Shown here one piece after another: positions 14,009-54,561 of a DNA stretch of 64,000 bases. The stretch's first letter is position 1. Each line of letters opens with the position of its first letter. The notes beneath the pieces are model-generated. The model had not been told where the DNA came from, did no database searches, and was given only the letters and a program-made list of their open reading frames with translations. The DNA is from a virus (lineage: Duplodnaviria > Caudoviricetes): positions 1,821 to 65,820 of IMG/VR virus record IMGVR_UViG_3300046000_006661, one strand, 5' to 3'. Position numbers and translations under genes: made by a program.

Positions 14009-14037
14009 ATACTAAGCGATTACCACCGACTTGTCAA
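14009..14037 (-). promoter_or_regulatory. Sigma70-type promoter
   Basis: TTGACA-17 nt-TAGTAT, 9 nt before ATG 13999. Confidence 0.75.
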
Positions 14038-31580: not shown

Positions 31581-33233
31581 TCAACTTTCGCAACTAGAAC
31601 ATGTCAAAATTGATCGAGCTAAATCTTGAGATGGATTCGAACTTCTTTGATAATACAAAGATTTGATTCCTTGTTCCCATGCAAAGATCATCAATTCGTT
31701 AATTTCTTTTGGTTTTGTGCCAGCAGGAATCATCAAATTGAGCGATTGTCCTTGATCAACATACTGTTGTCTTTGTGCTGCGTGAATCACAACTTCTTTT
31801 TGAGAAAGTTCTGCGAACGTCTTAAAAACATTCTTTTCGTCTTCCGAGAAGAATTCAAGATGCTGAACACTTCCACCATGAATCAAAATACTCTTCCAAG
31901 TTTCTTTGTCATTCTTTCCTTTTGATTCCAACACTTCTTCGAGTTTTGGATTGCGATAAGTAAATTGACCTTTAGCAAGATTCTTAACGAAGTAGTTGCT
32001 ATTGAGAGGCTCAATGCTAGGACTTACTTGCCCCAAAATAAAGCTAGAGCTTGTAGTAGGTGCAATAGCAATAGTCGTAGTGTTGCGGCGACCATAGCCT
32101 TTCAATACTTCTGGCTCGCCAAACATTGTAGCAAGTTCTTGAGAAGTTTTATCGGCACGTTTACGAATTTCTGAAAAGATAGAGATATTCTCGAAATGAG
32201 CGTCCATGCTTTCCCATGCAATCATTTTTGATTGAAGGTAGCTATGATAGCCAAGAACGCCCATTCCCAAAGCTCTGTGATTTTTAGCAAAGTTATGAGC
32301 GGCTTCCATCAAGCGATTGCCTTTTGTTTTCTCCACGAATTCAGTCATGACGGCATCCAAGAACATTACCATTGTTTCGACGGCATCAGTCTTTTCGATT
32401 TCGTCCCACCACAACAAATTCAATGAAGACAAACAGCATACGAACGACTCATCATTGGTAGATGGAAGGAAAATCTCAGAACAAAGGTTGCTTGCATTGA
32501 TTTTATATTCTTTGTCTTTGTAGACTTGTGGAGCTTGATTGTTAGCGTTATCTGTAAAGAAAACGTAAGGATAGCCAGTCTCAGAACGCTTCTTGATTAC
32601 TGCTCCCCATCTGCGTCTTTTTTCTTTATCGCCATCAATCATTGAATTCATCCAACCTTCAGGAATGGTAATTCCAATAGACATTTCTTGAATAGAGTGA
32701 CCCTCAGAACGAATCTTCATAAACTCGTCAAAGTCACCATGATCAATCGGAAGGTATGCCGCGAAGCTGCCTCTACGTGCGCTTCCTTGGCTGATTATCT
32801 TAGCTACGTTGTCAAACAACTCCATGCATCGGACTGCACCCTCTGCAACGCCACCTGTTGAAATTTTAGAACCTCTTGGGCGAATGTCGCCAAAATATCC
32901 AGATGTTCCGCCACCAACTTTAGTCATCATTCCGACTTCTGCTTGTTTAGTTAAGAAAGCTTCGATGCTATCAGAGATGTGGCTGTTAAAGCAAGAAATT
33001 GGATTGCCTCTTTCGTTTCCGAAGTTCATCCACACAGGAGTGGAGAGGCTGTAAAAGCCGCGAGACATGTAATCAACAAACTTAGCCGCAAAACCTTCGA
33101 TGCCAAGTATTTTTTGCGCTGTATTAGCAATTTCTTGAATTCTTTCGATGGGGGATTGACCCTCACTTAGATAACCTTGCTCCAAGAATTTAATGGAGTC
33201 TTCATTTAGCCAGTAGTATTTTTCTTTCGTCAT
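31581..33233 (-). CDS. nrdA: Ribonucleotide reductase class I alpha subunit (short, no ATP cone)
   Basis: ISCF, SNLCSEI, APTTSSS and SLYY motifs; C-terminal CxxC. Confidence 0.95.
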   Translation of the reverse strand: MTKEKYYWLNEDSIKFLEQGYLSEGQSPIERIQEIANTAQKILGIEGFAAKFVDYMSRGFYSLSTPVWMNFGNERGNPISCFNSHISDSIEAFLTKQAEVGMMTKVGGGTSGYFGDIRPRGSKISTGGVAEGAVRCMELFDNVAKIISQGSARRGSFAAYLPIDHGDFDEFMKIRSEGHSIQEMSIGITIPEGWMNSMIDGDKEKRRRWGAVIKKRSETGYPYVFFTDNANNQAPQVYKDKEYKINASNLCSEIFLPSTNDESFVCCLSSLNLLWWDEIEKTDAVETMVMFLDAVMTEFVEKTKGNRLMEAAHNFAKNHRALGMGVLGYHSYLQSKMIAWESMDAHFENISIFSEIRKRADKTSQELATMFGEPEVLKGYGRRNTTTIAIAPTTSSSFILGQVSPSIEPLNSNYFVKNLAKGQFTYRNPKLEEVLESKGKNDKETWKSILIHGGSVQHLEFFSEDEKNVFKTFAELSQKEVVIHAAQRQQYVDQGQSLNLMIPAGTKPKEINELMIFAWEQGIKSLYYQRSSNPSQDLARSILTCSSCES

Positions 33234-33236
33234 AAA

Positions 33237-34208
33237 TTAAAACAGTTCGTCTTCGTCGTAGGATTGTGAATTTTTCGCATACTCTACGGGTCTGGAATGG
33301 AAAAAGTCAGTTTGATTAGGTGCGAGAACTTGCTCGTCGAACCAAAATGTATCATCCAATAATTGATTGTCAATATCAAAAACTGGAGAAAATCCAATTC
33401 CCGATAACGACTCATTGATTCTGTTTTTAATAAATTCTTTCAATACGGGAGCAGAAAGACCAGGCTCTTGAATTCCATTTACCATCCAATCAATGATTTT
33501 GCTTTCTGCAATAAAAGCTTGCTCTGCTTCGTGAGCGATACGATCCTGCAACTCTTGGTCGAAAAGTTCTGGATATTCTTCGCGAATGGTGCTGATAATT
33601 TTCATGCCGACCATTGCGTGAATCGCTTCTTCATTGCGTGTATAGCGAACTTGCTGGTCGGTATCTTTAAGAACATTCTTATTCTTGGCAAACCAATTGA
33701 TTACGTAAAACTGACTGAACAAAGAGACGTTCTCAACGAAAAGAGTGAACAAGATCAAAGCGTAAAGATACTGCTTCTTGGAATCTTTGTAAAAGCGATG
33801 TGTGTATTTCTTGAGATACTTCACGCGCCCTTGAATCCACTCCAGCTTGAGGTTTTCCTCGAATACATCTTCCATGTCCAATTCACGCAAAAGGCGCTCG
33901 TAAGCGTTGTTGTGAATTACCTCTACATTCGCCATTACGAAGCCCAGATCGGAAAGTGAGGGGTGGGGAAGGTTTTCGCCTAACTTAGCCCAGAATGTCT
34001 TAACGGCTACCTCAATTTGCCCAATTGCAGACAATGTTCTCACGATGATTTCGCGCTCCTTGTCATTCAGAACAGTTTTGAATTGGTGAAAGTCTGTTTT
34101 GAAGCTGAATTCTTTGTCAGTCCAAAATCCCTGATGCATTGCATCAATGAATTGTTCAGTCCATGGATATTTATTCGGTTTACGTGAGATTTGTTCTTCA
34201 AAGATCAT
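33237..34208 (-). CDS. nrdB: Ribonucleotide reductase class I beta subunit
   Basis: EVIHNNAY, VENVSLFSQF, EEAIH and DFF motifs. Confidence 0.95.
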   Translation of the reverse strand: MIFEEQISRKPNKYPWTEQFIDAMHQGFWTDKEFSFKTDFHQFKTVLNDKEREIIVRTLSAIGQIEVAVKTFWAKLGENLPHPSLSDLGFVMANVEVIHNNAYERLLRELDMEDVFEENLKLEWIQGRVKYLKKYTHRFYKDSKKQYLYALILFTLFVENVSLFSQFYVINWFAKNKNVLKDTDQQVRYTRNEEAIHAMVGMKIISTIREEYPELFDQELQDRIAHEAEQAFIAESKIIDWMVNGIQEPGLSAPVLKEFIKNRINESLSGIGFSPVFDIDNQLLDDTFWFDEQVLAPNQTDFFHSRPVEYAKNSQSYDEDELF

Positions 34209-38424: not shown

Positions 38425-39585
38425 TCAAGCAAACGCTCCAACTATATCAAAAGAACTGATGTATGTTGATGGTTTTGGATATGGCGAAACTTTTAATCCA
38501 GATGCGTCTGTAACCTCTACGGAGTAATTTGCGCTAAACTCTATTCTATTGTTTACTGTCATAGAATGCGAAAAAGAATTTATTTTCGCGCCACGAATCT
38601 CAAATTTTCCAGAAGCAGTTTGTTGTTGATCTGCAAATATAATATCGAAGTCGTACGTCTCTTCCGCTCTATTAAGCAGATGAAGATTACCGCTAGAAAA
38701 TTGATCAACTACAGCGCTAACGTCAACAGATGCTCTTATTGGCAACTGAAGCTTTCGTCCATATACGTGATTACTGCCTAAACCATATAGATCCGTTCTT
38801 TCAAATGGGACAGAAAGATTGACAGACTGAATGATTGCTCCACTAACGAGAACCGCTCCACCCATCTGTAGATTTTCGAGTTGAGCTGATACATTTTGAG
38901 GAGATACCACTTTTGGTCTAAATATATTGAGTTCATTGTTATTAAATTGGTTGGAATATCCTGATAATGATGTTTTTAAATTACTGAAGTTCAAAAATCC
39001 TGATCCGCTATTGTTTCCTGAAGCAAGATTGATTGCTGGAATACTAACATTTGAACCTGTCAAATTTGTCATTTGAAGATTTGACGCGCTGAACGAAGCA
39101 GATACCGTGGGCAATCCACCTACTTGAAAACCAACAGAATAGTTATTCAAAAAGCAGTTACCAATCGCTGCGCATGTCATTCCACTGAAATTAGTTCGCG
39201 GCGAAACTCCCGTAAAACTCTGCAATAAATCTTGCCCGTTTTGATCATTTATAATCAAATAAAAATTCTGATCGCGAGTAGACATTCCAGATGCTATTGA
39301 TCTTGCTGATCCACTTGCGGGTGATAGTCCAAGCAGATACTCGTTTACTAAATGCGGCGAAAAAAGATAATCAACATTAAAAGAAACATTCGGCGCTCTA
39401 ACAATTGAATCTAATGCATATTGTTGCGAGCCTACTTGTTTTGATGTTTGTCTATCCACCGAAACAGAAATCTCTGATCCTTGAACTAGCGGCACAAAAT
39501 AACCGCTCTGCTCGGTAGTAGTCCAAGCAGGAGATGGTGATGTTGCTAGTATTGCTGAATTGCTTTTGAATATGAATTTGCTCAT
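38425..39585 (-). CDS. Tail-tube paralog (tail tip/initiator) ending in a TYISSFDIVGA peptide
   Basis: Aligns by eye along its length with 56569..57684 (IGNCFLNNYS..VG.LPT; IQS..LS.P..R....LGS). Confidence 0.75.
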   Translation of the reverse strand: MSKFIFKSNSAILATSPSPAWTTTEQSGYFVPLVQGSEISVSVDRQTSKQVGSQQYALDSIVRAPNVSFNVDYLFSPHLVNEYLLGLSPASGSARSIASGMSTRDQNFYLIINDQNGQDLLQSFTGVSPRTNFSGMTCAAIGNCFLNNYSVGFQVGGLPTVSASFSASNLQMTNLTGSNVSIPAINLASGNNSGSGFLNFSNLKTSLSGYSNQFNNNELNIFRPKVVSPQNVSAQLENLQMGGAVLVSGAIIQSVNLSVPFERTDLYGLGSNHVYGRKLQLPIRASVDVSAVVDQFSSGNLHLLNRAEETYDFDIIFADQQQTASGKFEIRGAKINSFSHSMTVNNRIEFSANYSVEVTDASGLKVSPYPKPSTYISSFDIVGAFA

Positions 39586-40529
39586 TGATCGTTAGGAACT
39601 ATCCCAAGTGGATCTTCCACTATTTCAATTTCCAATGTGTGTGAATTGTTGTAGTTCCAAGTGTGGCTCCACGATGGACAATAGTATACCTTCAATCTAT
39701 TGTAAACAGAAGGAGGTGTATGATAGAATCTTCTATAGCCGAATTTATTTTCCAAAAAGTGGAAGATGGCTTTAGCTTTTTGATCATCAATATTTTCAAA
39801 CTTATACTGCCAATTGATTAAAGAAATATTACGCGAAGAATTTATCTTTTGGATAAAAGAGTTTTTGAAATCTACAGTGTCAACGCGCATTTTAACATCG
39901 TTTTGAACGCCAACATCTGGCTCGAAAAAGAATGACTGACTCCATTTTGCTGTAGAACCTGTTGGACCATCTAAAGAAGTGCTAGATGCAACATGATCTT
40001 CGGTGCAGTAATAAAAATTGTTTAATTTATTGCTATTTACCCCAGAATAAAGTATGTCATACTTTTTATAGGATTGAGCCGCAGACCAAGTTTTGTAGCT
40101 GGTATTGATATAAGACATTCCAGACCAATTAAGAATAGAAGAAGCCTGAAATACTTCTAGCGAAAATGCAACCTCATAATGTTGCTTGTTTATGTGATTA
40201 ATAGCATAGTTGTCGCAAACTCCACTTACCTTCTTATAGAAATCAGAAGGATCGTCAAATTCGATAAACTCTTGACCGCTTTTTAATTCTAAAAATCTCA
40301 CCAACTGTTGAGCTTTGTTTTCGGGCAGATCGTATCTCAAATCAAACTTGGCGTTCAAGTTATTGACTGACATTGGAATCATGTTATAGAATCCATTTTG
40401 TGTTTCATATAAACTGTTTCGCGAAGTGATTGACACTTTCGATCCGTATGCTGGAAACTCTGAGCTTAATGAAGCTAGTGGGCTAACGCCACTAATGTTA
40501 CCTGTTGTTCTATCGTAAAAGCTGCTCAT
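39582..40529 (-). CDS. Distal/minor tail protein (duplicated gpM-like domains with CBM-like insert)
   Basis: Two similar halves (KAQQLVRFLELKSG / KAKAIFHFLENKFG); located downstream of the tape measure gene. Confidence 0.65.
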   Translation of the reverse strand: MSSFYDRTTGNISGVSPLASLSSEFPAYGSKVSITSRNSLYETQNGFYNMIPMSVNNLNAKFDLRYDLPENKAQQLVRFLELKSGQEFIEFDDPSDFYKKVSGVCDNYAINHINKQHYEVAFSLEVFQASSILNWSGMSYINTSYKTWSAAQSYKKYDILYSGVNSNKLNNFYYCTEDHVASSTSLDGPTGSTAKWSQSFFFEPDVGVQNDVKMRVDTVDFKNSFIQKINSSRNISLINWQYKFENIDDQKAKAIFHFLENKFGYRRFYHTPPSVYNRLKVYYCPSWSHTWNYNNSHTLEIEIVEDPLGIVPNDQ

Positions 40530-41315: not shown

Positions 41316-44300
41316 TTATCTTCTTAAAGAGCCTCCAATTCTTTTCTCGTCGTTGATGATCTGCAATACTGCGTCTTTGATTTGACGAGCGAGTTGTTGA
41401 CGGCTTGCAGATGGATCTTGCGAAGTTTCTTGAGAGGTTTGACCAGATGGAGCCACGTTGATTGTTATGTTTCCAGTTGAGCCAGATGCGCCAATAAGTT
41501 CATCAAGTTTTGCCAAGAGTTTTTCGTTGAGTTCCTTGCTTGTCTCTTCTGAAGTGATGGAAGTTCCACCAGAGTTCATTGATTGAAGGTTTGGCGCTCC
41601 AATGCTTTGAACAGCAGAGCGATTCATCACAAACTCTCCACCAGAAAGCATAGCTGGAACTGTGTCGATACCAGACCTAGATGGAATCATTCCACCAGTA
41701 GCGCTTCCTTTGGGTTTTCGCGGTAAGAGTATAAATTCTGGATTCTCTACTAGCGGAGTCATATTTGGATCAGATAATCCCTCTGGAAATAAATTGCCAC
41801 CACTCATACTTGTAGCTGCATCAAAAACAACTCCAGCAGGCGTTCTTGCTGTCCCTCTAGGTATGGAAGCATTTGCAGAAAATGGCATGGCTCCAGAAAC
41901 TGGCTCAGCCCTTAACGCGCCAATTCCGCCGCTTTTATCAATGTAAGAAGCAAAATTCTGATCTGATTGATAAAGATCCGATAATTGTTTGGCATTTCCG
42001 ATTTGAGACAGTTTGAATTTATTTACAGCACCCGCAAAATCTCCAGAAAACATCTTTCCAGCACCACTAAATAAATTTGATAAGCCTCCAACTTGTTGAT
42101 TTCCTACTTTCCCACCTTTAATTGCTCCAGAAAATGCAGTGCCAAATTTTTGAAAAAATCCAGCATCCTTTGGCAGATTGCCGAGAGCGGCTTTAGCTCC
42201 AGAGCTAGCAGCATTCCCAATACCTCCTAATGCAGCGCTTCCAACCAACATCAATAATTGAGATGTTAAAGCTTTTTTCTTTTCTTTCTCTTGTTTCTTG
42301 GCTTCTATTTCAGCATTATACTGTTGCAGATACAAATCAAAAGCTTGCTGTTTTGCTGATTGAGTGGCTTCGAACTGTGGCGAATTTCTCATTCCAGAAA
42401 CAGACAACATTGGACTTTCTGGCTCAAGAGCAATAGATTGGTAGCCATTTTCATTTGTCATTCTATCAAACACTCCCGATGTACCACTTTGAGTTGCAAA
42501 GCTTAATAAATCTCTTTTGCCTAAAATAGCTCCAGTATTATAAGTTCCTGGGGTATAGAAGCCAGCATTGCCGCCTTGTATTTTTTTGGCTTTTGATCGT
42601 CTTTCTTCATATATATTTTGTATTAATTTATTATATGGATTCTTTTCAGAATCGACCATGCCGCCATTAGCGTAACCATTCAATGTTCCGTTGTTGATTG
42701 CCTCTAAGAATTTTGGACCGTATTTCGATACAGCTTTCTTATTTACGACATATTCGCCGCCCATAAGCATTGCTGGAACATCGTCTTTTGATCCAGAACC
42801 ACCAGTTACTTTGCCGCCAGAAGCGAATCCAAGCATTCCAGATAAGAAATCAATAAATCCGCCACCACCAGCCGCTTCCTCTCCTTTTCCTTTAGGTTTT
42901 CCACTAACAATCCGATCAACTAATCTGCTAGTCATTCTTTGGTTTATAGTTTTTACCAACTCATAAGCGGCAGAACGGAATCCTTCTTTGAGAGAAACAG
43001 TTCCTTCAATTGCAGAGTTTATTGCACCGCTAATTCCATCAGAAAACATTTTTGGAATGTCTTTGCCTAATAGATAAGCAAATTGCTCGCCATCTATCTG
43101 CATTTGCAAAAATGCATTTTGCATTCCTTCTGCGAATGTTGAAGGAGATCCCTTTAAATCGTCTAGTTGCCGCTGCAATTGAGAATTTTCTGATTGTCCT
43201 ATGCTTTGAATTTCACCATTAATTTGCTTAATTGCATCTTCTCTTTCTCTAAGATCTTCTTTTGCTTTAGCAGCGTCTTCGCCACTTCTTATTGTATTTG
43301 CGGCTTGAGCTAATTTTTGTGCTAAACTTGCAGCGGCTTCATCTTGTAGTGTAAGTTCTTCTGTGGCATATTTTAATGCAGAATTATATATCTCCGCAGA
43401 GTCTGTCAATTTAGATAGTTCTTCGGCTTTTTTAAATTTTTCTTCTTCAGAAACTTTTGTAGTTAAAACTGTTGTAGTTGCTAATCCTGTATCTGTAGCT
43501 GGCCTGTAATCAGCTATTGATGATGTTCTACCAGTTGGATTGCCAAATTCTTTCATAAATGAAGGTTTGGCTCCACCAGCTTTACTCATCCGATCTGTAG
43601 CACTTCCAACTGGTCCCAATCTAAAGTTAGATGCCAAAGGATTATTAGGAATAACCTCTACCAGTTTTTTTAAAGCAATTGTGTTTTCTTTAATTTGTTC
43701 ATTATTGTCTCCTAATGCTAATATATTTTCTTCGAGCTTAGCATTTCTCACGAACTCGGCTTTAGCATCTAAGATATTTCTTTCGCGTTCGCTTTGTAAT
43801 TCATTTTGGAATTTAAGTCTTTCGAGTCTGTTTTCCTCATCTCTTCTTTCAAACGGAGAAATTCCATTAGTCTTAGATAATTGAGCAAGCTTTACGTCAA
43901 TGTCTGCATTTTTTAATTGCGATGCATATCCAACTTGTGTAGATTGATTCGATATGTCAGTTGCTCTTGCTGACATAAGTTGCGCGTATCTTTCAGACGC
44001 TTTATTGTTTTGTTCTTGGATTTTGTTTTTGGCAATTTCAAGATTTTTCGATTTTTCTTTTTCATCGTTTCCGTCTTGAACGGCTCGATTTGTTCTTTCT
44101 TGCAAATCAAGAGCGTTCAATATTGCTTTAGCTAATTGCTCAGCAGCATAAATATTTTCTTTTAAATCAGTTCCCTGTAATTGGGCTTTTGCAAAATCAA
44201 TCGCAGCTTGCTGTTGATTATTACTGCTTAATATCGCTTGCGCTTCTTTATTATCTTTAAGATTTTTTAAAGTTGCTCTTACTTTATCTTCTGCATTTGA

Positions 44301-47300
44301 GCCTTTAAACAGACCCTTGTCCATGAATTCTCCCGCCAATTTGTTTAGCTCTTCTTGGATTGTTTTTTGAGCTTCTAATTCGGCAGTTTGTTTTTCTAGC
44401 GCTGCTTGAGCTTCCAATGTTTTGATTGTTCTATTAGATGCTGAAAGATTTAAATCAGCTTCTATACCTGCTACAAGAAGTGAAGAATCATAACGCTTGT
44501 CTGCAATTTGCTGCTCTATCGTTCTAATAGACTCTCTTTCAAGCTTTTCTCGCTTGATAGCTTTAATTGTTTCTTGTAATTCTCTTGGTGATCTAGCTGT
44601 CGCGCTAATATTTTCTTCCGCAATTGCTTTTTCTTGATCTTTCGCAAGAGATGTAGTTTTATTTATATATTCATTTTGTATTTCTTCAGAAATGCCTTCT
44701 TTTTTTAAAGATTTAATTAAATTTAATAAAATTGTTGATTCTGGCGTTTGTCTACTTTGAGCATCTTTAAAAGAATTATACTCAAAAGAACCCTTTTTAA
44801 AATCTTTGCCTTCATACAAATACATAGTATCAGCTATTGACTTGGCTGATTGAATTTCTTCATAACTTGCGCTACCTAATACTTTTGCATTATCTTCGCC
44901 TATTTGATTTAGTAAATTTTGAGGGCTTAATGTCGATGGTATTTCAGACATCATTTTATTTAACTCATTGATATAATTTTTAACTTGACCGCCATTAAGC
45001 TGCACTTCGCCTAATTCATTTTTATCTCCCTGTTTAGCGTAATTAAGTAAAAGTTCATCAATTGTTTTTTGAGGAATTCCAACACCTCTTGCGTTTGCCA
45101 TAGATGTATATAATTCTTGGTTTAGTGTATCGCCAAGACCTTCTGTTAAATCACTATATCTTAATGAAGTCATGTCAATTTTTTGACCCATAGCTTTCGC
45201 TACTACTTGAAAGGCGGGAGCCATTAGTTTTTGTCCCGTGGTTTGTTCGCCATCGGATGTTAATTTTTGAGCCTTGCTTCCTATAGCCAAAACCGAAGCT
45301 CTAGCCTCTTCTTCAAATCTTTTCTTTATTGCTGGATTAATATTGTCTAAATTTACAGAAGCTTTACTAGCCGCTTCTGCTAATCTGCCAGTTGCTTCAG
45401 CAGCGCTCTTCATGCCTTGATTATTGCTATCTACATATTTTATAGCTTCCTTAAAAGCCACATACAAACCAACTCCTACTGCGGCAACACCACCCAATTT
45501 TCCAATGACTCTACCAAATCCTTTTTCTGCACCACCAAAAGCTTGCGATAATCCCTGACCAGCAAAAACTACTGTTGTTACTGAGCTAGCAACTGCACCG
45601 AAACTATTAAATAATTTCGCCATACCGCTTGTCGCGCCTTCTGTAGCTCCAGTTAAGGCGCTCATTGCTCCTTGAACTGCAAAAATAGTTCCAAGCATAT
45701 CTCTATTACCACCAGGAGTAGTGCTAGTGTCTCTTACTTTACCCATTGGGTTAGTAATAGATCTTTTTGCGCTTTGTGTGACTGCTGCTTGTAAATTTGC
45801 TGCGTTTTGATTAGCTTCTGCTTTTTTATTTGCTGTGTCTGTTGCAAGCGTTTTAGATTGGATTGCTATTTGCTTACGCTCTTCTAATGTTTGTCGAAGA
45901 GGTTGTTGTGCAGCGGCGACAGCTTTCTGCTGTTGAGCTTCTTGCATTTGCATATTAGTTATTGCCGCTTGCGCTTGTGGCGATTTCTTCCCCGCTGCTT
46001 GTGCTGCTGCAAGATTAGCCTGAATCTGTTTTAAAAGATCCTCTTCTTTTTTTAACATATCCCTTTCTATCTTGCTTCGTTTTTTTAAACTTTCAGAAGT
46101 TTGCTTTAAGCTTTTCTCTTGATTATCATATTCATCTTGAATTTGTTTCAAGTTATCAGTCAATCCTTGATTAATTTTAACTGTTGCTTCTGAAGGCTTC
46201 AAACCAACATAAGGAGATATATCTGCACCAGCTGCCCCAGCAGCAAAATTCGGCACAAACCCACCAGCAGCACCATACATCATTGGATTAGCTCCTTCTT
46301 TTCTTGCGCGGCTAATACCTTGGAATCCGCCAGCAGGTTCATCGCGACGATTGGCAACCATCAAACCCATAGGGTTTGCCGCATTCTTTAGCGCAGGACT
46401 CTTATCAATATAAATCTGTGAAGCAGGAACACCAGCAGCCATTTCGCGACCTACTGCCGCTTGAAGTGGATTGGCAAAGTTGGGAAGGAAGCCGCCAGCA
46501 GCTCCGCCTTCAATATTTCTGCGAGCTTGTTCTTTTATTTGTTTATGTGCGATTCTAGCTCTCTTAACCAATCCTTGAATCATTGGAGTTGGATCATTTA
46601 TATGACTTCCTGACCTTAATGGAATACCAGCATCTAAATCTATTAAATCTTTAAGAATTGATTGAAATGCTCCCATCTCTCTTGTAGAAACAGAAACGCC
46701 AATTCCTCTATTCATTAAGTCTTGAAATCCAGCTTTTGCCGCAGGTATAACCTGCTCTAAAGACTTTCCAACTAGGTCTTGTTCAATTGGAGAAATTCCG
46801 TTTGGCAATACAGCACCAAGAAACTGATCAAAACCAAGAGTTTTTGCAATACCAGTCAAAGGCTTCAGCTTTTCTAAAAGCCTTTTTGCATTTTCTGATG
46901 CACGATTAGGTGTTCCTCCAGCAAAATTAGGAATAAAACCACCAGCAGCCCTGGTGTTGAAAGGCACAACGCCTTTAAAAACCGCTGGCTTAGCTTTCGG
47001 GATAGAAGAAACCAATTCTCTCAAAATATAAGGTCCAATATTAAATCCTCTTTGCTCTGATTCCACGTAAGCGTTTTGGCTTTGTATTATTTTAGAAAAT
47101 TCAGAAGCAGAAGGTCTCAATTGTCCATCAAGGTATTTATATAAAATTTCTTTTTCTGCTGGATGTAAAGCTACGTCCCACGAATCTTTATAAGAAGCAT
47201 AAGCTTGTGGAAACTCATTCTTTCTCATTACTAATTTTTGTTTGCCAGTAAATCCTCCTAAAAGAGCGGTGTTGCCATAAAAGCCACCTTTATGGTCGGT

Positions 47301-50300
47301 CATTCTTGCTTTATCTTGTCCATGGTCATCAGCATAACCCCTTCTGCCAGCTAGTGCTGCTTCTGTAGCAACCTGCTTTCCATGTTCGCTTTTGGGATTT
47401 AATTTTAAAAATTCTCCCTTTTGGATATAAGCATCGCTTTTCTTCCCATCGTAATCCTTTAATGATTTTTGGCCTCCTAAAAGTTTGTATTTCAAGTATT
47501 CTTCCGAATCAGCATCTATGCTATGGCCTTCTCCACCTCCTGACTCGCGAGTCCCACTAATAACATTTTTGTTATTATAAAATGCTGTATTTATTCTTTG
47601 GGCTGCGAATTTAGCGAATTTTTCTCTTAATTTGTCATTTGTTAAAAAAGTTTTTATCGTATATTTTGCATTATCAAGATCTTTTCGTGTTTTAATGAGT
47701 CTTTCTGGTTCTTCGACAAATTTAGATACCATTGGCCAAACTTTATCTAAATCCAGTTTGCCTTTTAAAGCGGAAGAAATTACTCCTTGGGGTAATTGAG
47801 ATCCAAGATTTTTTGAAGAGGATATGGCAAATTTTGCAGCATTAAAAGCATCCATTACCCCGAAATTCGGCACAAACCCACCAGCAGCATTAGGAATATA
47901 ACCACGCGCAAAAGTATCTACTATAGAACTAATTCCAATGCTTAAACTACCGCCGCGCAAATCTTCGATAAATTCTTTGGGACCACTTTGCGTTTTGTTA
48001 TGTAGACCTTTAATTTCATTAATCAACAAAGAAAAAACATCTTTACCCGAAACCCTCTTAGCATTTATCTCCCTACCATTTTTTCCCCTATAACTAAAAG
48101 AGTCAATATTCGTATTTTTTACATTGCTGTTTTTTCTGTACCAAAGCTGCGGATACATCCCCTTTAAAATTTCTTCAAAGCCTACTCGTTGTCCTCCTTG
48201 TAAATTAGCCTCTAAATCATCTAATCTTGTTTTATCTTGAGCTAGAAGTATAGTAGAATACAACTTCATACCAGACCTTTTTGATAACGCCCCCAAGTGA
48301 TTAAACATTCTTAAACCATCGCCTTTTTGTAGAGACCTTATATAATCTATATTTATATAGTTTTTTAGTTTGCTTCCCGTTGATTTTGGATCGTATGATA
48401 ATGGATCGTATAAAGATGCATCCAGTTGTTTTAGTGAGTATGAAGCGTAGCTTCTGCTTTTTGGATCTGTTGCTGTTTTGGATTTTTTACCAGTAACATT
48501 TGATATTCGTTTGTTGAGACCAGGAATATATCCACTTAGAGCGTCAGGCGCTGTTGTTGGTTTTCTTCCATACGCAATGGATTGGTATTGAGGTGGAATT
48601 GCGGCTACATAATTCGGCACAAACCCATCAGCAGCACCATACGTCATCGGATCAGCTCCTTCTTTTATTGCTCTGTTGATTCCTTGAAATCCACCCGCTG
48701 GTTCGTCACGACGATTTGCTACCATTAAACCCATTGGGTTTGCCGCATTTTTTAATGTGGGGCTTTTGTCAACATAAATCTGCGAAGCTGGAATACCAGC
48801 AGACATTTCTCTATTCACTGCATCTTGCAATGGATTAGCGAAATTAGGAATAAAACCACCAAAAGCATTTTTTGCTTGTACTGCTTTTTGCGCTTCTGAA
48901 AGATTAAATGCGCCCTTTGCTTTTAAAATTTTAAGCGCTCTAGCGCTGTATTCAGGATCATTGAATACTTTTTTAATTATTCCTTGAACTTGACCAGAAC
49001 TTTCAAAATTAGCTTCTCCACCTCTTTTTGCCTCTCCTCTTTCAGCAGTTATTCCAAATATTTTACTAATACCTTCTGCATTCGAAAAATCAAATGGCCT
49101 ATTCTGTTCTTTACCAGAAAAAATTCCAGTAGATTTTAAATTTCCAGTCTTTAAATCTACTGCATCCCTTAAAGAATTAACCGCTACTTTACCAGCAGCT
49201 TCAAATAAATCTCCCTGTGCAGCAGTTGGTAATAATTGTTGTCCTGGTGTTTTTGCTATTTTTCTTATTGTTCCAACCCAATCTTCATTTTGAGCAAAAA
49301 GTTTACCATATAATTTATAAGCAAGATCGACAATTCCTTGTGCAAATGTATCACTTATATCTTCCTCTACCCCTTCAATGTCTCTACCAGATGGAGTATT
49401 TGTTTTTTGAATTCCAGAAAGTTGAATGTATTTATTTTTGTCTATTGGGGGTGCATCTTTATAGTTAAAGAACGGAATATCAGCAATCTTCATTGTTGTA
49501 TTTAAAAGACCCTTTTTCTTGCCAAATCGTGGAGAAATGAGAGCAATTCCACCAAGATTCTGGGCATTTAATTCATACGAACCCTTGTCTGCTATTTTTG
49601 CTTGTTTAATATCCGCATTAACAGCCGATACAGCTCTGCTAGACTTCATTACCCTTTCAACTTGAGATGGTGCTGCCTGAGTTCCATCAGGAAACCAATA
49701 ACTTCTGTATGGTCTACCAAATTCATCTTTCCCTGGTCTTATGTAATTTTCAATATTGCCAGCTTCAACATATTTTCTTATCTCGTCATCTATGGCTTTT
49801 GGTCGTGGCGCTTCAGCAAAGTTTGGAATAAAGCCTCCAGCACTATTATCAATTATAGAATTAATTTTTCTTTCAGAAGCTCTTTGAGAAGTTCTTTGTT
49901 CAAAATAAGAACTATTATTAAGTTTCGTATCATAGGGAACAACTAATCCTAATTTTCCTGATACGTTCTCGTCAAATGGATTTTTAATGTAGTTATTTGA
50001 AAGAAAAGAGTTTGCATATTTTTTAACAATTTCAAAAAGATTTTGTCTTTCCGTTGTTTTTACTTCATTATTGTCAGTTAAATCGAAAAATGAATTTTTA
50101 CCCAAAATTGGTTTACCGAGTAATTGAGATGCGTCTATCTCTCCAATAACTCCTTGAACTTTGTTTTGTAATTTTATCCATTTATCTTTATTTCCCTTTG
50201 TATCTCCTTTTGCATATTTTATATTTCTGATCGACGTTTCAATTGAAGAGACAGCTGATGGATCTGCACCTGCTTCTAACCATTCTTTTTTATATCGTTC

Positions 50301-52490
50301 CAAAGCATCTTCATTAATTTTCTTGCCAGAGCTAACTCCGAGTTTAGTGAAAATATAATCATCTTCTTTTCTTGTTTTTGACTGTCCTTTTCCAAGTACT
50401 AGCCCCGCTTCGTTTTGATAGGATTTAATTGCTTTTTTTTGTCTAAAGACGCTAATTATAGCTTTAAATTGATCAGATAGATCTGCATTTTCTCCATTTC
50501 TTAAAGCTCCTGATTTAGATTTTTTAAAAGAATCTACAGTCGTAAATGGAGTTTCAATGATTTCTGGCTTTATTGTATTTGCAAAATTTGGAACCAATCC
50601 TCCAGCTGCATTGATTTTCTTTGCTCCCGATGGCAACCCCATAGATTGAACCATACGTCTATTAAACACAGCAGTGCCACCACTTCCATTGAAATTCGGC
50701 ACAACATACTCGCCAGTATGTGCAACCATCGTCCCTTTTTTACCGCCTCCAAAATTAAAGTTTGGCATGACAACTGGTCTATCACCAGAACGAGCGCCAC
50801 CTACTCCTTGTTTGATTGCCTTGCTTTCTTTTGCAACTGCTGGCATATAACCGCCAGCGCTATTGCCAATGCGCAAACCAGAATCTTTAGCTCTACCTCC
50901 TACATTATAAAGAGGCGCTGCTAGTCCAGAGGAAATATTAGCGCTTCTTCTAAGAAGAGCTTCTTGCTCAACCAATGCTCCAGTAATTAATCTCAATTGA
51001 GCTGCTCTGTTGCCTTCTAATGCAAACAGTTGCTGTTGCAGATTGACGTTCTTGGATAATATTTGAGAAATTGCTCCCTCGACATTTTGAACTTCTTTAG
51101 CTGCCTTACCAACTCCAAAGAATGCCTTCAAGCTAGCAAATCCAAACTGTACTAAATCTTTTGAAAGTTTAAGAATAATGCCGCCAAATAAAGCCAATCC
51201 TGGACCAGCTAAAAAGCTTCCAAGACCTTTAACAAGTCCACGAACCAAATTTCCTAAACCGCTTTCTTCGCCTAAAACTTTTTGAATGCCTTCTAGCAGA
51301 CCATTGAAAAAGCCTAAAACATTTTTCAGGCTATCTGTTACGCCAATTTCACCAAGTTTCGCGCCAAGTTGCTCAGCACTTACAGCAACTTTATTTAATA
51401 ATGCGGCTAGCGTTTGATTAAGAACTGCATTTTTCTGATACGCCTTGCTTCCAGCTTCACCCATAGCCTTCAAAGCGCCAGTAGTAACGGATGCTTCATC
51501 AGAAAGGTCGTTTAATGCAGCTAGCAATTTATCCAATTGATATACACCGCCTAGTTTTTTGGCAATATCTGCTTGCTCAATTTGAGAAAAACTGCCCATT
51601 TTTTTAGCCAAGTTTTCTAATATTTTTAACGCTGGCAATACTTCTCCTTGAAGATCTGTAACTCCTACACGCATGTCTTGCAAATCGGACAAAACAGCTT
51701 TATCTTGTATTCTGCTAAAAATTGTTTTAAAAGCGTTACCGATAACAGCGCCACCTCTAGCGGTTTTTTCTTGAACTGCTGTAATAACAGCCGCTAATTC
51801 TTCAAACGAAACTCCAGCTAAATTAGCAACTGAGGCAGATCGCTTGAGACCCTCAATAATATCTCTTTCCGATACTGAATATTTTTGAGCAGCAGCAACA
51901 ACTTTATTGAGAATTTCTGCTGTGGTGATTCCAGAACTCTTGAATGAGTTAAATGCAGCAGTCAAACCTTCAACAGATTGTGCGGCATCTAGTCCAGAAA
52001 GCCGCGAAAGAATCAAAGCATCGTTTAATCTAGCAAGTGTATCTTCTGCGTTCAAACCTTGACGAGCCAATTCTAATGCACCTTTAGCAACTTCGTCAAA
52101 CGATTTGCCAGTATTTTTTGCCACGTTAAAAATATCTTGACCAAATTTGTCAAGTTCTGAGCCTGTCTTATTTAAGACGGTGCTAATTTCTACTAGACTT
52201 TTTTCTACTTTAATAGTGCTAGTCAAAAGTCCAGACATCGCCTTAGATACGCCAGCAATAATACCAGCTGAAGCTCCGAACGCCAAAACACGCGCATTTG
52301 CTGCTGCCATGGATTTTGAGAACTCATCTGCCTGACCAGTAATCCTACCCAATGGTTGGCTCAATGCGTTAATTTGCTTTGAGTTTGTTCCCAAGTTAAT
52401 CTGCGAAGAACTACCTACACGCTTCATTGCAGCGGCGATACTTTGCTCTAATCCGACTTGAGTAACTTGTAATTGAATAGACTGTGACAT
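41316..52490 (-). CDS. Tape measure protein with internal cargo modules (3724 aa)
   Basis: TP901-type core (ELARQG, TARGGAVIGNAFKTIFSRI), hydrophobic G/A segments, long coiled coils, FASGG/D.VPAML.GGE C-terminal motifs; AGGAG SD upstream. Confidence 0.92.
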   Translation of the reverse strand: MSQSIQLQVTQVGLEQSIAAAMKRVGSSSQINLGTNSKQINALSQPLGRITGQADEFSKSMAAANARVLAFGASAGIIAGVSKAMSGLLTSTIKVEKSLVEISTVLNKTGSELDKFGQDIFNVAKNTGKSFDEVAKGALELARQGLNAEDTLARLNDALILSRLSGLDAAQSVEGLTAAFNSFKSSGITTAEILNKVVAAAQKYSVSERDIIEGLKRSASVANLAGVSFEELAAVITAVQEKTARGGAVIGNAFKTIFSRIQDKAVLSDLQDMRVGVTDLQGEVLPALKILENLAKKMGSFSQIEQADIAKKLGGVYQLDKLLAALNDLSDEASVTTGALKAMGEAGSKAYQKNAVLNQTLAALLNKVAVSAEQLGAKLGEIGVTDSLKNVLGFFNGLLEGIQKVLGEESGLGNLVRGLVKGLGSFLAGPGLALFGGIILKLSKDLVQFGFASLKAFFGVGKAAKEVQNVEGAISQILSKNVNLQQQLFALEGNRAAQLRLITGALVEQEALLRRSANISSGLAAPLYNVGGRAKDSGLRIGNSAGGYMPAVAKESKAIKQGVGGARSGDRPVVMPNFNFGGGKKGTMVAHTGEYVVPNFNGSGGTAVFNRRMVQSMGLPSGAKKINAAGGLVPNFANTIKPEIIETPFTTVDSFKKSKSGALRNGENADLSDQFKAIISVFRQKKAIKSYQNEAGLVLGKGQSKTRKEDDYIFTKLGVSSGKKINEDALERYKKEWLEAGADPSAVSSIETSIRNIKYAKGDTKGNKDKWIKLQNKVQGVIGEIDASQLLGKPILGKNSFFDLTDNNEVKTTERQNLFEIVKKYANSFLSNNYIKNPFDENVSGKLGLVVPYDTKLNNSSYFEQRTSQRASERKINSIIDNSAGGFIPNFAEAPRPKAIDDEIRKYVEAGNIENYIRPGKDEFGRPYRSYWFPDGTQAAPSQVERVMKSSRAVSAVNADIKQAKIADKGSYELNAQNLGGIALISPRFGKKKGLLNTTMKIADIPFFNYKDAPPIDKNKYIQLSGIQKTNTPSGRDIEGVEEDISDTFAQGIVDLAYKLYGKLFAQNEDWVGTIRKIAKTPGQQLLPTAAQGDLFEAAGKVAVNSLRDAVDLKTGNLKSTGIFSGKEQNRPFDFSNAEGISKIFGITAERGEAKRGGEANFESSGQVQGIIKKVFNDPEYSARALKILKAKGAFNLSEAQKAVQAKNAFGGFIPNFANPLQDAVNREMSAGIPASQIYVDKSPTLKNAANPMGLMVANRRDEPAGGFQGINRAIKEGADPMTYGAADGFVPNYVAAIPPQYQSIAYGRKPTTAPDALSGYIPGLNKRISNVTGKKSKTATDPKSRSYASYSLKQLDASLYDPLSYDPKSTGSKLKNYINIDYIRSLQKGDGLRMFNHLGALSKRSGMKLYSTILLAQDKTRLDDLEANLQGGQRVGFEEILKGMYPQLWYRKNSNVKNTNIDSFSYRGKNGREINAKRVSGKDVFSLLINEIKGLHNKTQSGPKEFIEDLRGGSLSIGISSIVDTFARGYIPNAAGGFVPNFGVMDAFNAAKFAISSSKNLGSQLPQGVISSALKGKLDLDKVWPMVSKFVEEPERLIKTRKDLDNAKYTIKTFLTNDKLREKFAKFAAQRINTAFYNNKNVISGTRESGGGEGHSIDADSEEYLKYKLLGGQKSLKDYDGKKSDAYIQKGEFLKLNPKSEHGKQVATEAALAGRRGYADDHGQDKARMTDHKGGFYGNTALLGGFTGKQKLVMRKNEFPQAYASYKDSWDVALHPAEKEILYKYLDGQLRPSASEFSKIIQSQNAYVESEQRGFNIGPYILRELVSSIPKAKPAVFKGVVPFNTRAAGGFIPNFAGGTPNRASENAKRLLEKLKPLTGIAKTLGFDQFLGAVLPNGISPIEQDLVGKSLEQVIPAAKAGFQDLMNRGIGVSVSTREMGAFQSILKDLIDLDAGIPLRSGSHINDPTPMIQGLVKRARIAHKQIKEQARRNIEGGAAGGFLPNFANPLQAAVGREMAAGVPASQIYIDKSPALKNAANPMGLMVANRRDEPAGGFQGISRARKEGANPMMYGAAGGFVPNFAAGAAGADISPYVGLKPSEATVKINQGLTDNLKQIQDEYDNQEKSLKQTSESLKKRSKIERDMLKKEEDLLKQIQANLAAAQAAGKKSPQAQAAITNMQMQEAQQQKAVAAAQQPLRQTLEERKQIAIQSKTLATDTANKKAEANQNAANLQAAVTQSAKRSITNPMGKVRDTSTTPGGNRDMLGTIFAVQGAMSALTGATEGATSGMAKLFNSFGAVASSVTTVVFAGQGLSQAFGGAEKGFGRVIGKLGGVAAVGVGLYVAFKEAIKYVDSNNQGMKSAAEATGRLAEAASKASVNLDNINPAIKKRFEEEARASVLAIGSKAQKLTSDGEQTTGQKLMAPAFQVVAKAMGQKIDMTSLRYSDLTEGLGDTLNQELYTSMANARGVGIPQKTIDELLLNYAKQGDKNELGEVQLNGGQVKNYINELNKMMSEIPSTLSPQNLLNQIGEDNAKVLGSASYEEIQSAKSIADTMYLYEGKDFKKGSFEYNSFKDAQSRQTPESTILLNLIKSLKKEGISEEIQNEYINKTTSLAKDQEKAIAEENISATARSPRELQETIKAIKREKLERESIRTIEQQIADKRYDSSLLVAGIEADLNLSASNRTIKTLEAQAALEKQTAELEAQKTIQEELNKLAGEFMDKGLFKGSNAEDKVRATLKNLKDNKEAQAILSSNNQQQAAIDFAKAQLQGTDLKENIYAAEQLAKAILNALDLQERTNRAVQDGNDEKEKSKNLEIAKNKIQEQNNKASERYAQLMSARATDISNQSTQVGYASQLKNADIDVKLAQLSKTNGISPFERRDEENRLERLKFQNELQSERERNILDAKAEFVRNAKLEENILALGDNNEQIKENTIALKKLVEVIPNNPLASNFRLGPVGSATDRMSKAGGAKPSFMKEFGNPTGRTSSIADYRPATDTGLATTTVLTTKVSEEEKFKKAEELSKLTDSAEIYNSALKYATEELTLQDEAAASLAQKLAQAANTIRSGEDAAKAKEDLREREDAIKQINGEIQSIGQSENSQLQRQLDDLKGSPSTFAEGMQNAFLQMQIDGEQFAYLLGKDIPKMFSDGISGAINSAIEGTVSLKEGFRSAAYELVKTINQRMTSRLVDRIVSGKPKGKGEEAAGGGGFIDFLSGMLGFASGGKVTGGSGSKDDVPAMLMGGEYVVNKKAVSKYGPKFLEAINNGTLNGYANGGMVDSEKNPYNKLIQNIYEERRSKAKKIQGGNAGFYTPGTYNTGAILGKRDLLSFATQSGTSGVFDRMTNENGYQSIALEPESPMLSVSGMRNSPQFEATQSAKQQAFDLYLQQYNAEIEAKKQEKEKKKALTSQLLMLVGSAALGGIGNAASSGAKAALGNLPKDAGFFQKFGTAFSGAIKGGKVGNQQVGGLSNLFSGAGKMFSGDFAGAVNKFKLSQIGNAKQLSDLYQSDQNFASYIDKSGGIGALRAEPVSGAMPFSANASIPRGTARTPAGVVFDAATSMSGGNLFPEGLSDPNMTPLVENPEFILLPRKPKGSATGGMIPSRSGIDTVPAMLSGGEFVMNRSAVQSIGAPNLQSMNSGGTSITSEETSKELNEKLLAKLDELIGASGSTGNITINVAPSGQTSQETSQDPSASRQQLARQIKDAVLQIINDEKRIGGSLRR
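46242..50864 (-). repeat. About ten dispersed AxGG(F/Y/L)(I/V/L/M)PNF repeats and a duplicated ~75-aa module inside the tape measure gene
   Basis: Copies near 50850, 50595, 49830, 48850, 48620, 47900, 47875, 46935, 46485 and 46255. Identical 27-mer at 46246-46272 and 47863-47889. Confidence 0.9.
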
Positions 52491-52532: not shown

Positions 52533-53504
52533 CTAGCCCATTAATTCTATCAATTGATCCATATTCATTACGCCGCCATTTTTGCTAATCTCATCGGACA
52601 AGCTAATGGCTCTAGCATTTGGATCAATCGCTTCTAAATCTTCTTTTGTAGCGCCGAAGACTGCTGAAGCTCCTTTTTCAGTATTGACATTTCCTTTATT
52701 GCTGTTGCCCTTCTTTCTTTCAACAAAGTCGAAAATTGCTTCTGGGTCTTGTTTCATTCTTTCGGGAATGTCTTCATTGTATTGGAACATATTGAAGAAA
52801 ATACGCGCATAGATTGCGAGCTTCAATTGATAAACAGAAAGCTCAATAATCGGCTTACCATAAAACGCCGAAACGTCTTCTGTTTGCGACATATACATGT
52901 TGAAGAAGTCACGCAATACCACACGTTGTATGTTCGACTCACTTAGCCTTCGACTAATGTAATCGTTTTCTTTTACAAAGAACTCCACCTCTTCTTCTGA
53001 TAGATTAGAAAACTGCTCATCTGTAAAGAAATGGCGAGAACACTGTTGATCGGCATAAATCAAATATCGAATAAATTCCTCGTTGGATCGTTGAGAACCG
53101 TACCGCTCAGATGTCTTTCCTACAAGTTCTGCTTTTTTATTAAACAAGAAATAAAGCTCTTTTTGTTTAGCCTCAAGAGTTTCTTGAATATTTTTTTTCT
53201 GCGATGGTAGGAATGAGTTTCTTTTTGCGCCTCTTAAACCCTCCATCTCTTGTTCGAGTTCTATAATTTTGCGATCATCGTTGTCGCTCCATAATCCATC
53301 TTCACGCAAAGAATCGAGCATCTCCTCTTCCGAGGGGATGCCCTTTGATTCTGCAATTGATTTGTATTTGTTGTAAAATCTGTGGATATATCGTTGGTCT
53401 CGAATAGAGAAATGCTTGATGTATACAGTCTTTCCTTGAAAAGTTATGTCTGTATAGCCATCAAATATTTCTCCAACGATTCCAATGTATTCCTCTTCAG
53501 TCAC
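52533..53504 (-). CDS. Putative tail assembly chaperone (second paralog)
   Basis: Immediately upstream of the tape measure gene; helical; resembles 53507..54268. Confidence 0.6.
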   Translation of the reverse strand: MTEEEYIGIVGEIFDGYTDITFQGKTVYIKHFSIRDQRYIHRFYNKYKSIAESKGIPSEEEMLDSLREDGLWSDNDDRKIIELEQEMEGLRGAKRNSFLPSQKKNIQETLEAKQKELYFLFNKKAELVGKTSERYGSQRSNEEFIRYLIYADQQCSRHFFTDEQFSNLSEEEVEFFVKENDYISRRLSESNIQRVVLRDFFNMYMSQTEDVSAFYGKPIIELSVYQLKLAIYARIFFNMFQYNEDIPERMKQDPEAIFDFVERKKGNSNKGNVNTEKGASAVFGATKEDLEAIDPNARAISLSDEISKNGGVMNMDQLIELMG

Positions 53505-53506
53505 AA

Positions 53507-54268
53507 TTAGAGTTCATTACTTTCGACTCGCTTCATTAGGTCGTCGAATGAATCTTTATCGGAAGCTTGATTGAAGAACCAGAACGCCAAAATTGTTGCG
53601 GCTTTTTTGGTAATCAAGAAATAGAGCGAATCGTCGGATTCTTCTTTCTTGTAATATTCTGCAAGCTTGTCGTCAAAATCTCCAGCTCCAAAATAAGGCG
53701 TTGGATTTTCGTCATCAACTCCTTGAATATAGGTAAGCATGATAACATACCAAAGAATAAGCCTGTTCTGAGCTTTGACATCGGCAGTATGATCGAACAG
53801 TGCTTGATAATTCGACTCTGTTTCAACAATCTTGCGGCGAACTAATTGAAGCTCTTCGATAATTTCATCGACTCTTTTCGTTTGTTTTTCCGTTTTGTTT
53901 TGAATAATTTCGAGTCTTGAGTAATCAGACTGCAATTCAAAAATCTTTTTATAATTATCTACTAGCTCTTGAGCGTCATCTTCGCTCATTAGACCGCCAG
54001 TATCGCTATACTTTTTCGCTAACATCGCTTTCGTGAGAATGCCTTTTTTAATGCACTTGCTCATTTCAACACTAAACTCAAGTTCAGCATCTTCTAGTTC
54101 GCGGCGAGATGGCTTTTTAATTTTGACTGCGAGAGGCTCTTTTTCCTTGACTTTTTTAGTCACGGTAATCTGCTCGCCAGTTTTCTTGTCTGTTTTAGAC
54201 GAGCTAACTTCCTTTTCCACTTCTCTGTCAACAGAGAAACTATATAATTCTTTAAAACCTTTTTCCAT
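53507..54268 (-). CDS. Putative tail assembly chaperone (first paralog)
   Basis: Position, plus a V.IKKPS..E motif typical of such chaperones. Confidence 0.6.
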   Translation of the reverse strand: MEKGFKELYSFSVDREVEKEVSSSKTDKKTGEQITVTKKVKEKEPLAVKIKKPSRRELEDAELEFSVEMSKCIKKGILTKAMLAKKYSDTGGLMSEDDAQELVDNYKKIFELQSDYSRLEIIQNKTEKQTKRVDEIIEELQLVRRKIVETESNYQALFDHTADVKAQNRLILWYVIMLTYIQGVDDENPTPYFGAGDFDDKLAEYYKKEESDDSLYFLITKKAATILAFWFFNQASDKDSFDDLMKRVESNEL

Positions 54269-54273
54269 ACTTG

Positions 54274-54561
54274 TTATTTAAATATAAATGAAACAGAATA
54301 GTTTTCCATTTCTTCAGTAAAATTTCTTAGAGATTCGTTGCCGCCATCAAGTATTCTTTTACGAATCCAATTCAACTTATCGTTGGTAAAGTGATTTGCA
54401 GCAGTAATAATAACGTGATGTTCTTCTGGAATTAGCTCGTAAAGCTTATTATAATGAAAGTCGTGATCAGCTTTCATGTCCTCCAAAATTTTCAAGTAAT
54501 TCTTGAATAAAGCGGTGACTTCTTTCTTGTGCTGCTTTAATAAGTAGTGATTAGCGTCCAT
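54274..54561 (-). CDS. Hypothetical protein
   Basis: 95-aa ORF heading the chaperone operon. Confidence 0.65.
   Translation of the reverse strand: MDANHYLLKQHKKEVTALFKNYLKILEDMKADHDFHYNKLYELIPEEHHVIITAANHFTNDKLNWIRKRILDGGNESLRNFTEEMENYSVSFIFK

Follow-up and report, generated by a model that had tools for sequence, protein, structure and literature searches.

We analysed a 64,000-nucleotide (nt) stretch of DNA (hereafter the window; positions 1,821 to 65,820 of IMG/VR record IMGVR_UViG_3300046000_006661) from an uncultured virus of the class Caudoviricetes, whose 65,820-bp source record has a completeness estimate of ~50%. The middle of its tape measure protein (TMP), from amino acid (aa) 543 to aa 2083, is organised as an array in which a ten-residue connector, A-A-G-G-F-I-P-N-F-A, recurs in ten copies, two of them degenerate, between seven modules. 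The explanation that we favour, at somewhat better than even odds, is that this is an exchangeable entry-domain array with a recognised connector; we lean to the same slight extent toward the view that the middle of the TMP is a string of independently folding domains joined by one flexible connector of ten residues.

The connector array in the tape measure protein

The array lies in a single uninterrupted open reading frame (ORF) at 41316-52490 on the minus strand (11,175 nt; 3724 aa plus stop), and all features of this gene given below are on the same strand. Judged from its family matches the product is a TP901-type TMP, because PF10145 (PhageMin_Tail) covers aa 123-315 (E = 2.1e-30; 106.6 bits against a cut-off of 33.2), tape measure PHROGs match over aa 20-480 (phrog_4211, E = 4.3e-47), and the second gene downstream (39582-40529) encodes a minor tail protein that matches PF05939 (Phage_min_tail, E = 1.3e-14) and phrog_14. 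A sequence-only reading of the window had reported AxGGF(I/V)PNF repeats in mid-TMP, and they are present where it placed them, with the first glycine of successive copies at aa 546, 630, 885, 1211, 1288, 1529, 1537, 1850, 1999, and 2076. The copy at aa 546 is weak (SAGGYMPA), the one at aa 1288 has D in place of G, and the one at aa 1529 is degenerate (FARGYIPN); the segments between connectors measure 73, 244, 315, 66, 230, 302, 138, and 66 aa. The strict pattern GG[FYLM][IVLM]PN[FY] occurred seven times in the TMP, versus a mean of 0.00015 and a maximum of 1 in 20,000 shuffles of the protein, and a chance origin of the repeats is excluded. A six-frame scan of the 64-kb window with a looser pattern gave eight matches in the TMP ORF and none in other frames. 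Across 464 copies the connector logo read (K/M)(K/T)(I/Y)(G/N)-A-A-G-G-F-I-P-N-F-A with nearly invariant G, P, and N, the asparagine being present in 455 of the 464 even though the pattern admitted S, A, D, or G at that position.

The architecture M6-M1-M2-M4-M11-M16-M2 found here is among the richest of the family. Beyond the conserved N-part (aa 1-542; 50865-52490), the array opens with an N-end unit (aa 544-637; 50580-50861) that begins with the weak copy SAGGYMPAVA and closes with connector 1 (AAGGLVPNFA; 50580-50609), the connectors being placed by the motif. Module M6 (aa 638-881; 49848-50579), an accessory family located before the core module, is followed by connector 2 (SAGGFIPNFA; 49815-49844) and the core module M1 (aa 893-1207; 48870-49814), after which connector 3 (AFGGFIPNFA; 48837-48866) leads into the first copy of M2 (aa 1219-1284; 48639-48836) and connector 4 (AADGFVPNYV; 48606-48635). 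M4 (aa 1296-1525; 47916-48605), delimited as a module by family clustering, is separated by the double connector 5+6 (FARGYIPNAAGGFVPNFG; 47859-47912) from M11 (aa 1545-1846; 46953-47858). Connector 7 (AAGGFIPNFA; 46920-46949), M16 (aa 1858-1995; 46506-46919; also from family clustering), connector 8 (AAGGFLPNFA; 46473-46502), and the second copy of M2 (aa 2007-2072; 46275-46472) complete the array, which ends at connector 9 (AAGGFVPNFA; 46242-46271) and gives way to the conserved C-part (aa 2084-3724; 41319-46241).

Codon usage indicates that the connector is under selection as a peptide and not as DNA: all of its synonymous codons are in use at near-background frequency (51 copies, ten genes), and the longest exact DNA match between copies has a median of 8 nt (45 site pairs in the window). 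The DNA identities reported among the repeats were verified (27/27 nt at 46246/47863, 21/21 nt at 46924/48841, and 31/32 nt at 46247/48611), and the identical 21- to 27-mers are exceptions that may stem from recent exchange. The sequence-only reading had suggested that the repeats serve as recombination anchors; similarity between relatives does end at the repeats, but the peptide and not the DNA is conserved and they are therefore not mere DNA anchors.

Module turnover, breakpoints, and folds

To describe the family, aa 540-2090 of the TMP were used as a query, which returned 314 related long proteins; the 120 listed among these were 2100-4358 aa in length, with a patchy query coverage of 6-64%. 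Scanning IMG/VR twice brought up 243 related loci, and 80 of these were retained. When 185 non-redundant TMPs were cut at the motif by regular expression and the resulting 479 inner segments were clustered, 50 module families, 90 architectures, and 0-8 modules per protein were obtained, the family and architecture counts being approximate owing to the regular-expression cuts and the truncation of some contigs; composite segments such as M18 arose because degenerate connectors were missed by the expression. Nearly all of 118 relatives could be aligned over the N-part (aa 1-630; 106-117 relatives for aa 1-542) and over the C-part (from ~aa 2100; 100-116 for aa 2084-3724), and some mid-array segments were alignable in only 21-23 of them. 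Among TMP pairs with N-parts at least 95% identical, the architecture was the same in 23 of 129, and by this comparison module turnover is fast relative to the TMP backbone.

Similarity between relatives was interrupted at the connectors. Of 557 BLASTP end points inside the array, 314 fell within 5 aa of a connector, compared with 11% expected, and DNA homology to 11 loci stopped at aa 636-638, at 1207-1211/1294-1296, and at 1996-2002/2082-2084. We further collected 87 junction pairs in which the left flank was at least 90% identical and the right flank less than 50%; in these pairs, which share ancestry and are not independent, identity ended between nt +20 and +33, counted along the 30-nt connector, in 66 cases and at nt -1 in 13.

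The modules differed in how widely they were distributed and in where they stood. M1 was present in 158 of the 185 TMPs and M2 was the last module in 90 of 182 arrays, a distribution that marks M1 (core) and M2 (small, terminal) as near-universal and the other modules as accessory. M6, M7, M13, M19, and M22 preceded M1, with an exception in 1 of 11 M7 copies, M3, M4, M8-M12, and M15-M17 followed it, and few family pairs were seen in both orders; two copies of M2 occurred in five TMPs, this one among them. Across the 185 TMPs, the anticipated differences in module content and number, with similarity stopping at the repeats, were thus recovered, but the accompanying idea of a variable order was not, since order is mostly constrained with few inversions. 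Module number and identity therefore vary freely, as far as these alignments go, and order much less.

As modelled, the modules are shown to be real folded domains, restricted to this TMP lineage, with disordered connectors between them. An AlphaFold model of M1 (63 sequences) gave a compact alpha/beta domain (pLDDT 85.2; pTM 0.74) flanked by connectors with a pLDDT of ~47-54, and Foldseek found no match for it in PDB (best E = 0.26) or BFVD (best E = 0.19); the M1 sequence had no PDB sequence-profile match and no Pfam match. A PD-(D/E)xK nuclease assignment for M1, suggested by the nuclease-like spacing of the invariant residues E219, D256, and K277, was dropped, as the model contained only one real strand in that region and neither Foldseek (PDB, BFVD) nor the PDB profile and Pfam searches gave support. 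In M2, ten inner positions are invariant across 34 sequences, and six of these hold polar or charged residues (R, E, N, N, D, and E); the module was modelled as a small helix-strand-strand-helix unit (pLDDT 65; core 75-82) between disordered connectors; this model of moderate confidence had no Foldseek match (best E = 3.4). The N-end unit has 24 invariant columns in 72 sequences, includes two inner h-h-P-N-F copies 22 and 37 aa apart, and shows a weak similarity to M2 (hhalign 88%) for which the motif is partly responsible; its prediction as a homotrimer (score 0.12, mark 0.42) was counted neither way. The description of the array as not coiled-coil-like, made from the sequence alone, rests on the two models of M1 and M2.

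When 19 module families were compared by profile (hhalign) after removal of fused M2 from the segments, no kinship emerged except for one family that fuses two others, and M6 as a distant paralogue of M1 was rejected (probability 0.3%). The view that the segments are mostly unrelated is upheld by these comparisons, with the qualification that aa 1219-1284 and 2007-2072 are duplicates, the two M2 copies sharing 80% identity over 259 nt. None of 27 module sequences (the seven from this TMP and 20 that represent other families) matched Pfam above the cut-off. For the segments of this TMP, PHROG gave nothing significant (best E = 0.0014, for M6) and NCBIfam nothing; PDB sequence searches with M6, M4, M11, and M16 gave nothing credible, and ESM Atlas yielded no lead for M11 (best score 0.79) or M4 (best 0.89). 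Using a word index with limited candidates, by which distant free-standing relatives may be missed, we found no free-standing relative of M4 among proteins of 126-403 aa, and two profile matches to M1 among those of 125-709 aa, both of them TMP fragments; M11 had 10 matches in 1.84 billion representatives, nine of 2304-3745 aa and a marginal one of 121 aa. The suggestion that the modules are effectors is accordingly unsupported, the 27 sequences belonging to no known family and M1, M4, and M11 lacking a convincing free-standing relative in these searches.

Comparison with five close loci, for which dS was often saturated, gave dN/dS values of 0.06-0.10 for the N-part, 0.02-0.14 for M2, 0.15-0.46 for M1, 0.34-0.37 for M6, and 0.41 for M4, values that indicate modules which are constrained, yet evolve faster than the TMP backbone. 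In two modules of other loci, M5 (L081:10700-11161) and M50 (L072:10724-12031), the first 30-45 residues had sub-threshold matches to AAA_30 (E = 0.0017 and 0.0026; 18-19 bits against a cut-off of 27), and these modules may have a P-loop-like start.

The array was also recovered outside the source record. At least 83% of its sampled words were present in 20 lake-water runs from 20 studies (2016-2025), of which 12 were not flagged as a possible source of the record; with a near-identical array in these 20 runs, this exact architecture persists in freshwater. Four lake metagenome runs were examined at the contig level, and single contigs from runs of 2016 and 2023 spanned connectors 1-4 in two cases (2970 and 2437 nt) and connectors 6-8 in one (1865 nt). 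Among the 22 loose contig ends listed, with 36 more beyond the listing, 10 lay at connector edges, and these are places up to which a co-occurring relative matches before it continues with unlike sequence. Contig joints running from one connector to another were rejected as deletion variants, as their shorter side was 20-29 letters and coincided with the 21-nt connector identity. Just past the last connector, ~175 aa (aa 2084-2259; window 45715-46242, minus strand) are also variable, being alignable in 100-104 of the 118 relatives, and in one lake run contigs join 45715 to 46242/46243 with a shorter side of 49-90 letters.

Toward the C-terminus of relatives, peptidoglycan hydrolase domains (VanY, NlpC/P60, GH19, phage lysozyme, and SLT) were found 700-1200 aa past the last connector. 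The flanks of these hydrolases map to aa 2602-2957 and aa 2999-3390 of this TMP, and all of them therefore share one slot, at ~aa 2940-3010 here (window 43461-43673, minus strand), which in this TMP holds only a short non-helical linker; no lysin domain was found anywhere in this TMP by Pfam and NCBIfam scans. Since the hydrolase slot is separate, the theme of a lysin within a TMP is distinct from the connector array. Two C-terminal copies of a second repeat unit, VPAML..GE[YF]V, lie at aa ~3238 and ~3611 (42681-42845 and 41562-41726, minus strand); the unit matches phrog_13338 and phrog_24 and occurs twice in 107, once in 58, and not at all in 20 of 185 relatives. The C-terminal FASGG and ATGG motifs, which had been taken for relatives of the connector, belong to this separate unit, which hhalign does not relate to the connector-bearing units (probability 0.6% and 1.2%).

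Upstream of the TMP gene, where the major tail protein and assembly chaperones are expected, three genes (52533-54561, minus strand) encode products of 323, 253, and 95 aa (the first two at 52533-53504 and 53507-54268) for which Pfam and PHROG scans gave no match. The array had no match in a cultured-phage collection, and the N-part resembled only the TMPs of Bacillus, Staphylococcus, and Lactococcus phages, at no more than 28% identity. Elsewhere, the window carries genes for the large and small subunits of ribonucleotide reductase (31581-34208, minus strand; phrog_84, E = 1.6e-147, and phrog_86, E = 2.8e-62), and its G+C content, 34-46% over the remainder, dips to 27% at 28001-30000.

Explanations of the array

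If the array is an exchangeable set of entry domains, it would, as part of the TMP, be incorporated into the tail and exit before the DNA does. Its modules would then work during entry, either in the envelope or within the host, and targets specific to each host would account for their rapid replacement. The connector would serve as a short linear peptide signal, set in a disordered linker, by which all modules are treated in one way: held in a state that can be loaded into the narrow lumen of the tail, docked, or cleaved. Since the connector does not differ from place to place, any two units could recombine in frame. Several points weigh against this proposal. No module has a known function, and delivery of the modules into the host is argued from the behaviour of TMPs in model phages. 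The tail lumen is ~4 nm wide, and a folded M1 (~35 kDa, in three copies if the TMP is trimeric) would hardly fit in it. Because order is largely fixed, allele replacement by flanking homology fits equally well with connector-to-connector exchange; the architecture counts hinge on the regular expression and on truncated contigs; and the five contigs binned into metagenome-assembled genomes have conflicting taxonomy, pointing to four different phyla.

A chimeric metagenome assembly, or a read-through fusion of several genes, would make the array an artefact, and the record is indeed an uncultured viral contig of an estimated 50% completeness with repeats of a kind able to mislead assemblers. We give this almost no credence, since the frame stays open over the whole 11,175 nt, a near-identical protein of 3723 aa comes from other sources, the array words recur in lake runs that were not flagged as a source, and no exact repeat between connectors exceeds 27 nt, which falls short of the 31-letter words used in the run index; moreover, independent contigs bridge the connectors, and the arrangement is therefore not an assembly chimera. 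A device for length and recombination only, in which the modules are tail-length spacers and the connector is kept for in-frame homology, would be consistent with the range of TMP lengths in the family (1776-4358 aa), with the identity of some connector pairs over 21-27 nt, with the location of breakpoints at connectors, and with the setting of tail length by TMP length in lambda, TP901-1, and TM4. In TM4, a 114-aa deletion in the TMP shortened tails by ~20 nm and the ruler is scaled at 0.15 nm per residue (PMC1796659); on that scale the TMP would specify a tail of ~560 nm with the array and ~340 nm without aa 628-2083. Such a device nevertheless appears improbable to us, because synonymous connector sites are free and the median exact DNA match is a mere 8 nt, because the modules are modelled as compact domains with invariant residues and have dN/dS below 1, and because 50 distinct families would be needless for spacers.

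A stronger competitor, which we still regard as rather unlikely, is an injected polyprotein in which a phage or host protease, or autocatalysis, cuts the connector while the TMP is being ejected or later, so that up to seven separate proteins are released. Lambda gpH and T5 pb2 undergo processing, and lactococcal Tal proteins are cleaved at a site rich in glycine. One short peptide that recurs at either end of the array and wherever one independently folding domain gives way to the next, is modelled as disordered and hence accessible, and is under peptide-level selection with nearly invariant G, P, and N would suit a cleavage site, and M2 stands directly upstream of the last connector with ten invariant inner positions, as a catalytic or binding unit might. 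The window also holds a gene, unusual for a phage, for a Lon-like ATP-dependent protease (14012-16306, minus strand; 764 aa; phrog_4871, E = 2.2e-197), which nothing links to the connector. Against cleavage, the ten tail-gene neighbours that were scanned, in a record covering about half of the genome, included no peptidase family and no protease is tied to the connector motif; outside the TMP frame the window contains no further occurrence of this motif, which is therefore not a maturation site shared among the genes in view; the two close h-h-P-N-F copies in the N-end unit resemble a binding repeat more than cuts; and the TMP needs to remain intact for as long as it acts as the ruler of the tail. 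Natural variants in which the array is divided at a connector into separate genes were looked for and none was found, the short ORFs being complete shorter TMPs or broken contigs. The most elaborate form, a self-processing injected polyprotein whose connectors are cut after the tail fires, releasing into the host up to seven proteins from a set reshuffled at the connector, is a shade more doubtful still; for its chemistry, the invariant Asn of P-N-F might react, or the conserved M2 or M1 domain might catalyse cleavage next to G-G.

Comparison with known systems and significance

The literature searched contained no account of a TMP with an array of modules set off by a shared connector, and several systems share some features of this array. 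TM4 gp17 likewise carries a non-ruler domain within a TMP: its Mt3 domain is dispensable for assembly, active at infection, and counts as part of the ruler (Piuri and Hatfull 2006; PMC1796659). As described there, however, gp17 has one small peptidoglycan-hydrolase motif of a known family and no delimiting connector, whereas the present family has up to eight modules without a known family, bounded by the same ten residues and exchanged between phages. The TP901-1 TMP, of 937 aa, is the archetype of PF10145 and thus has the same N-terminal family. Its N- and C-terminal regions are essential, the length between them sets tail length, and TMPs exit the tail at infection (Mahony et al. 2016; PMC5099701). 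The abstract of that study describes no cassette array, unlike the TMP analysed here, in which ~1450 of 3724 aa are modular.

Polymorphic toxins offer another parallel, with VENN in CdiA and DPxGL in Rhs bordering exchanged domains, and the Rhs peptide also self-cleaves. The likeness lies in a short conserved peptide at the border of rapidly exchanged domains; those systems have one C-terminal toxin and a downstream immunity gene, however, and here several internal domains stand in a row, none of the 27 module sequences matched a toxin family in Pfam, and no immunity gene follows among the neighbours scanned. Tandem-repeat length units of TMPs were reportedly described by Belcaid et al. in 2011; successive units are alike in such repeats, whereas the 19 families compared here are unrelated and only M2 is duplicated. 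In actinobacterial contractile injection systems, Sle1 is a TMP-related effector with a swappable functional domain (Nagakubo et al. 2026; PMC13277306), and it resembles the present case as a TMP-derived carrier, packed in a tail-like tube, whose diverse domain was experimentally swappable; it differs in having, judging by the abstract, one functional domain per protein and no reported repeat of a junction motif, and in being part of a contractile nanomachine and not of a phage. A survey of mosaicism in phage proteins found TMPs to be often mosaic by sequence, and its authors state that no genuine recent case among them could be confirmed (Smug et al. 2023; PMC10684548), whereas this TMP family gives clear mosaic cases with defined breakpoints.

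TMPs are usually seen as rulers with at most one embedded lysin, and in the family described here a TMP is used to carry many domains that change quickly and share a standard connector. The family adds ~50 domain families confined to these proteins, one of which, M1, is confidently modelled without a match among solved or viral predicted structures. The array makes two questions open to direct test, namely by what means a siphophage tail stores and expels folded cargo, and whether the length of the tail is in every case that of the TMP. A natural plug-in connector of this kind could help in loading foreign domains into the tails of phages in laboratory phage-bacterium systems, and a self-processing polyprotein, if that doubtful alternative were true, would correspond in phages to polymorphic effector arrays.

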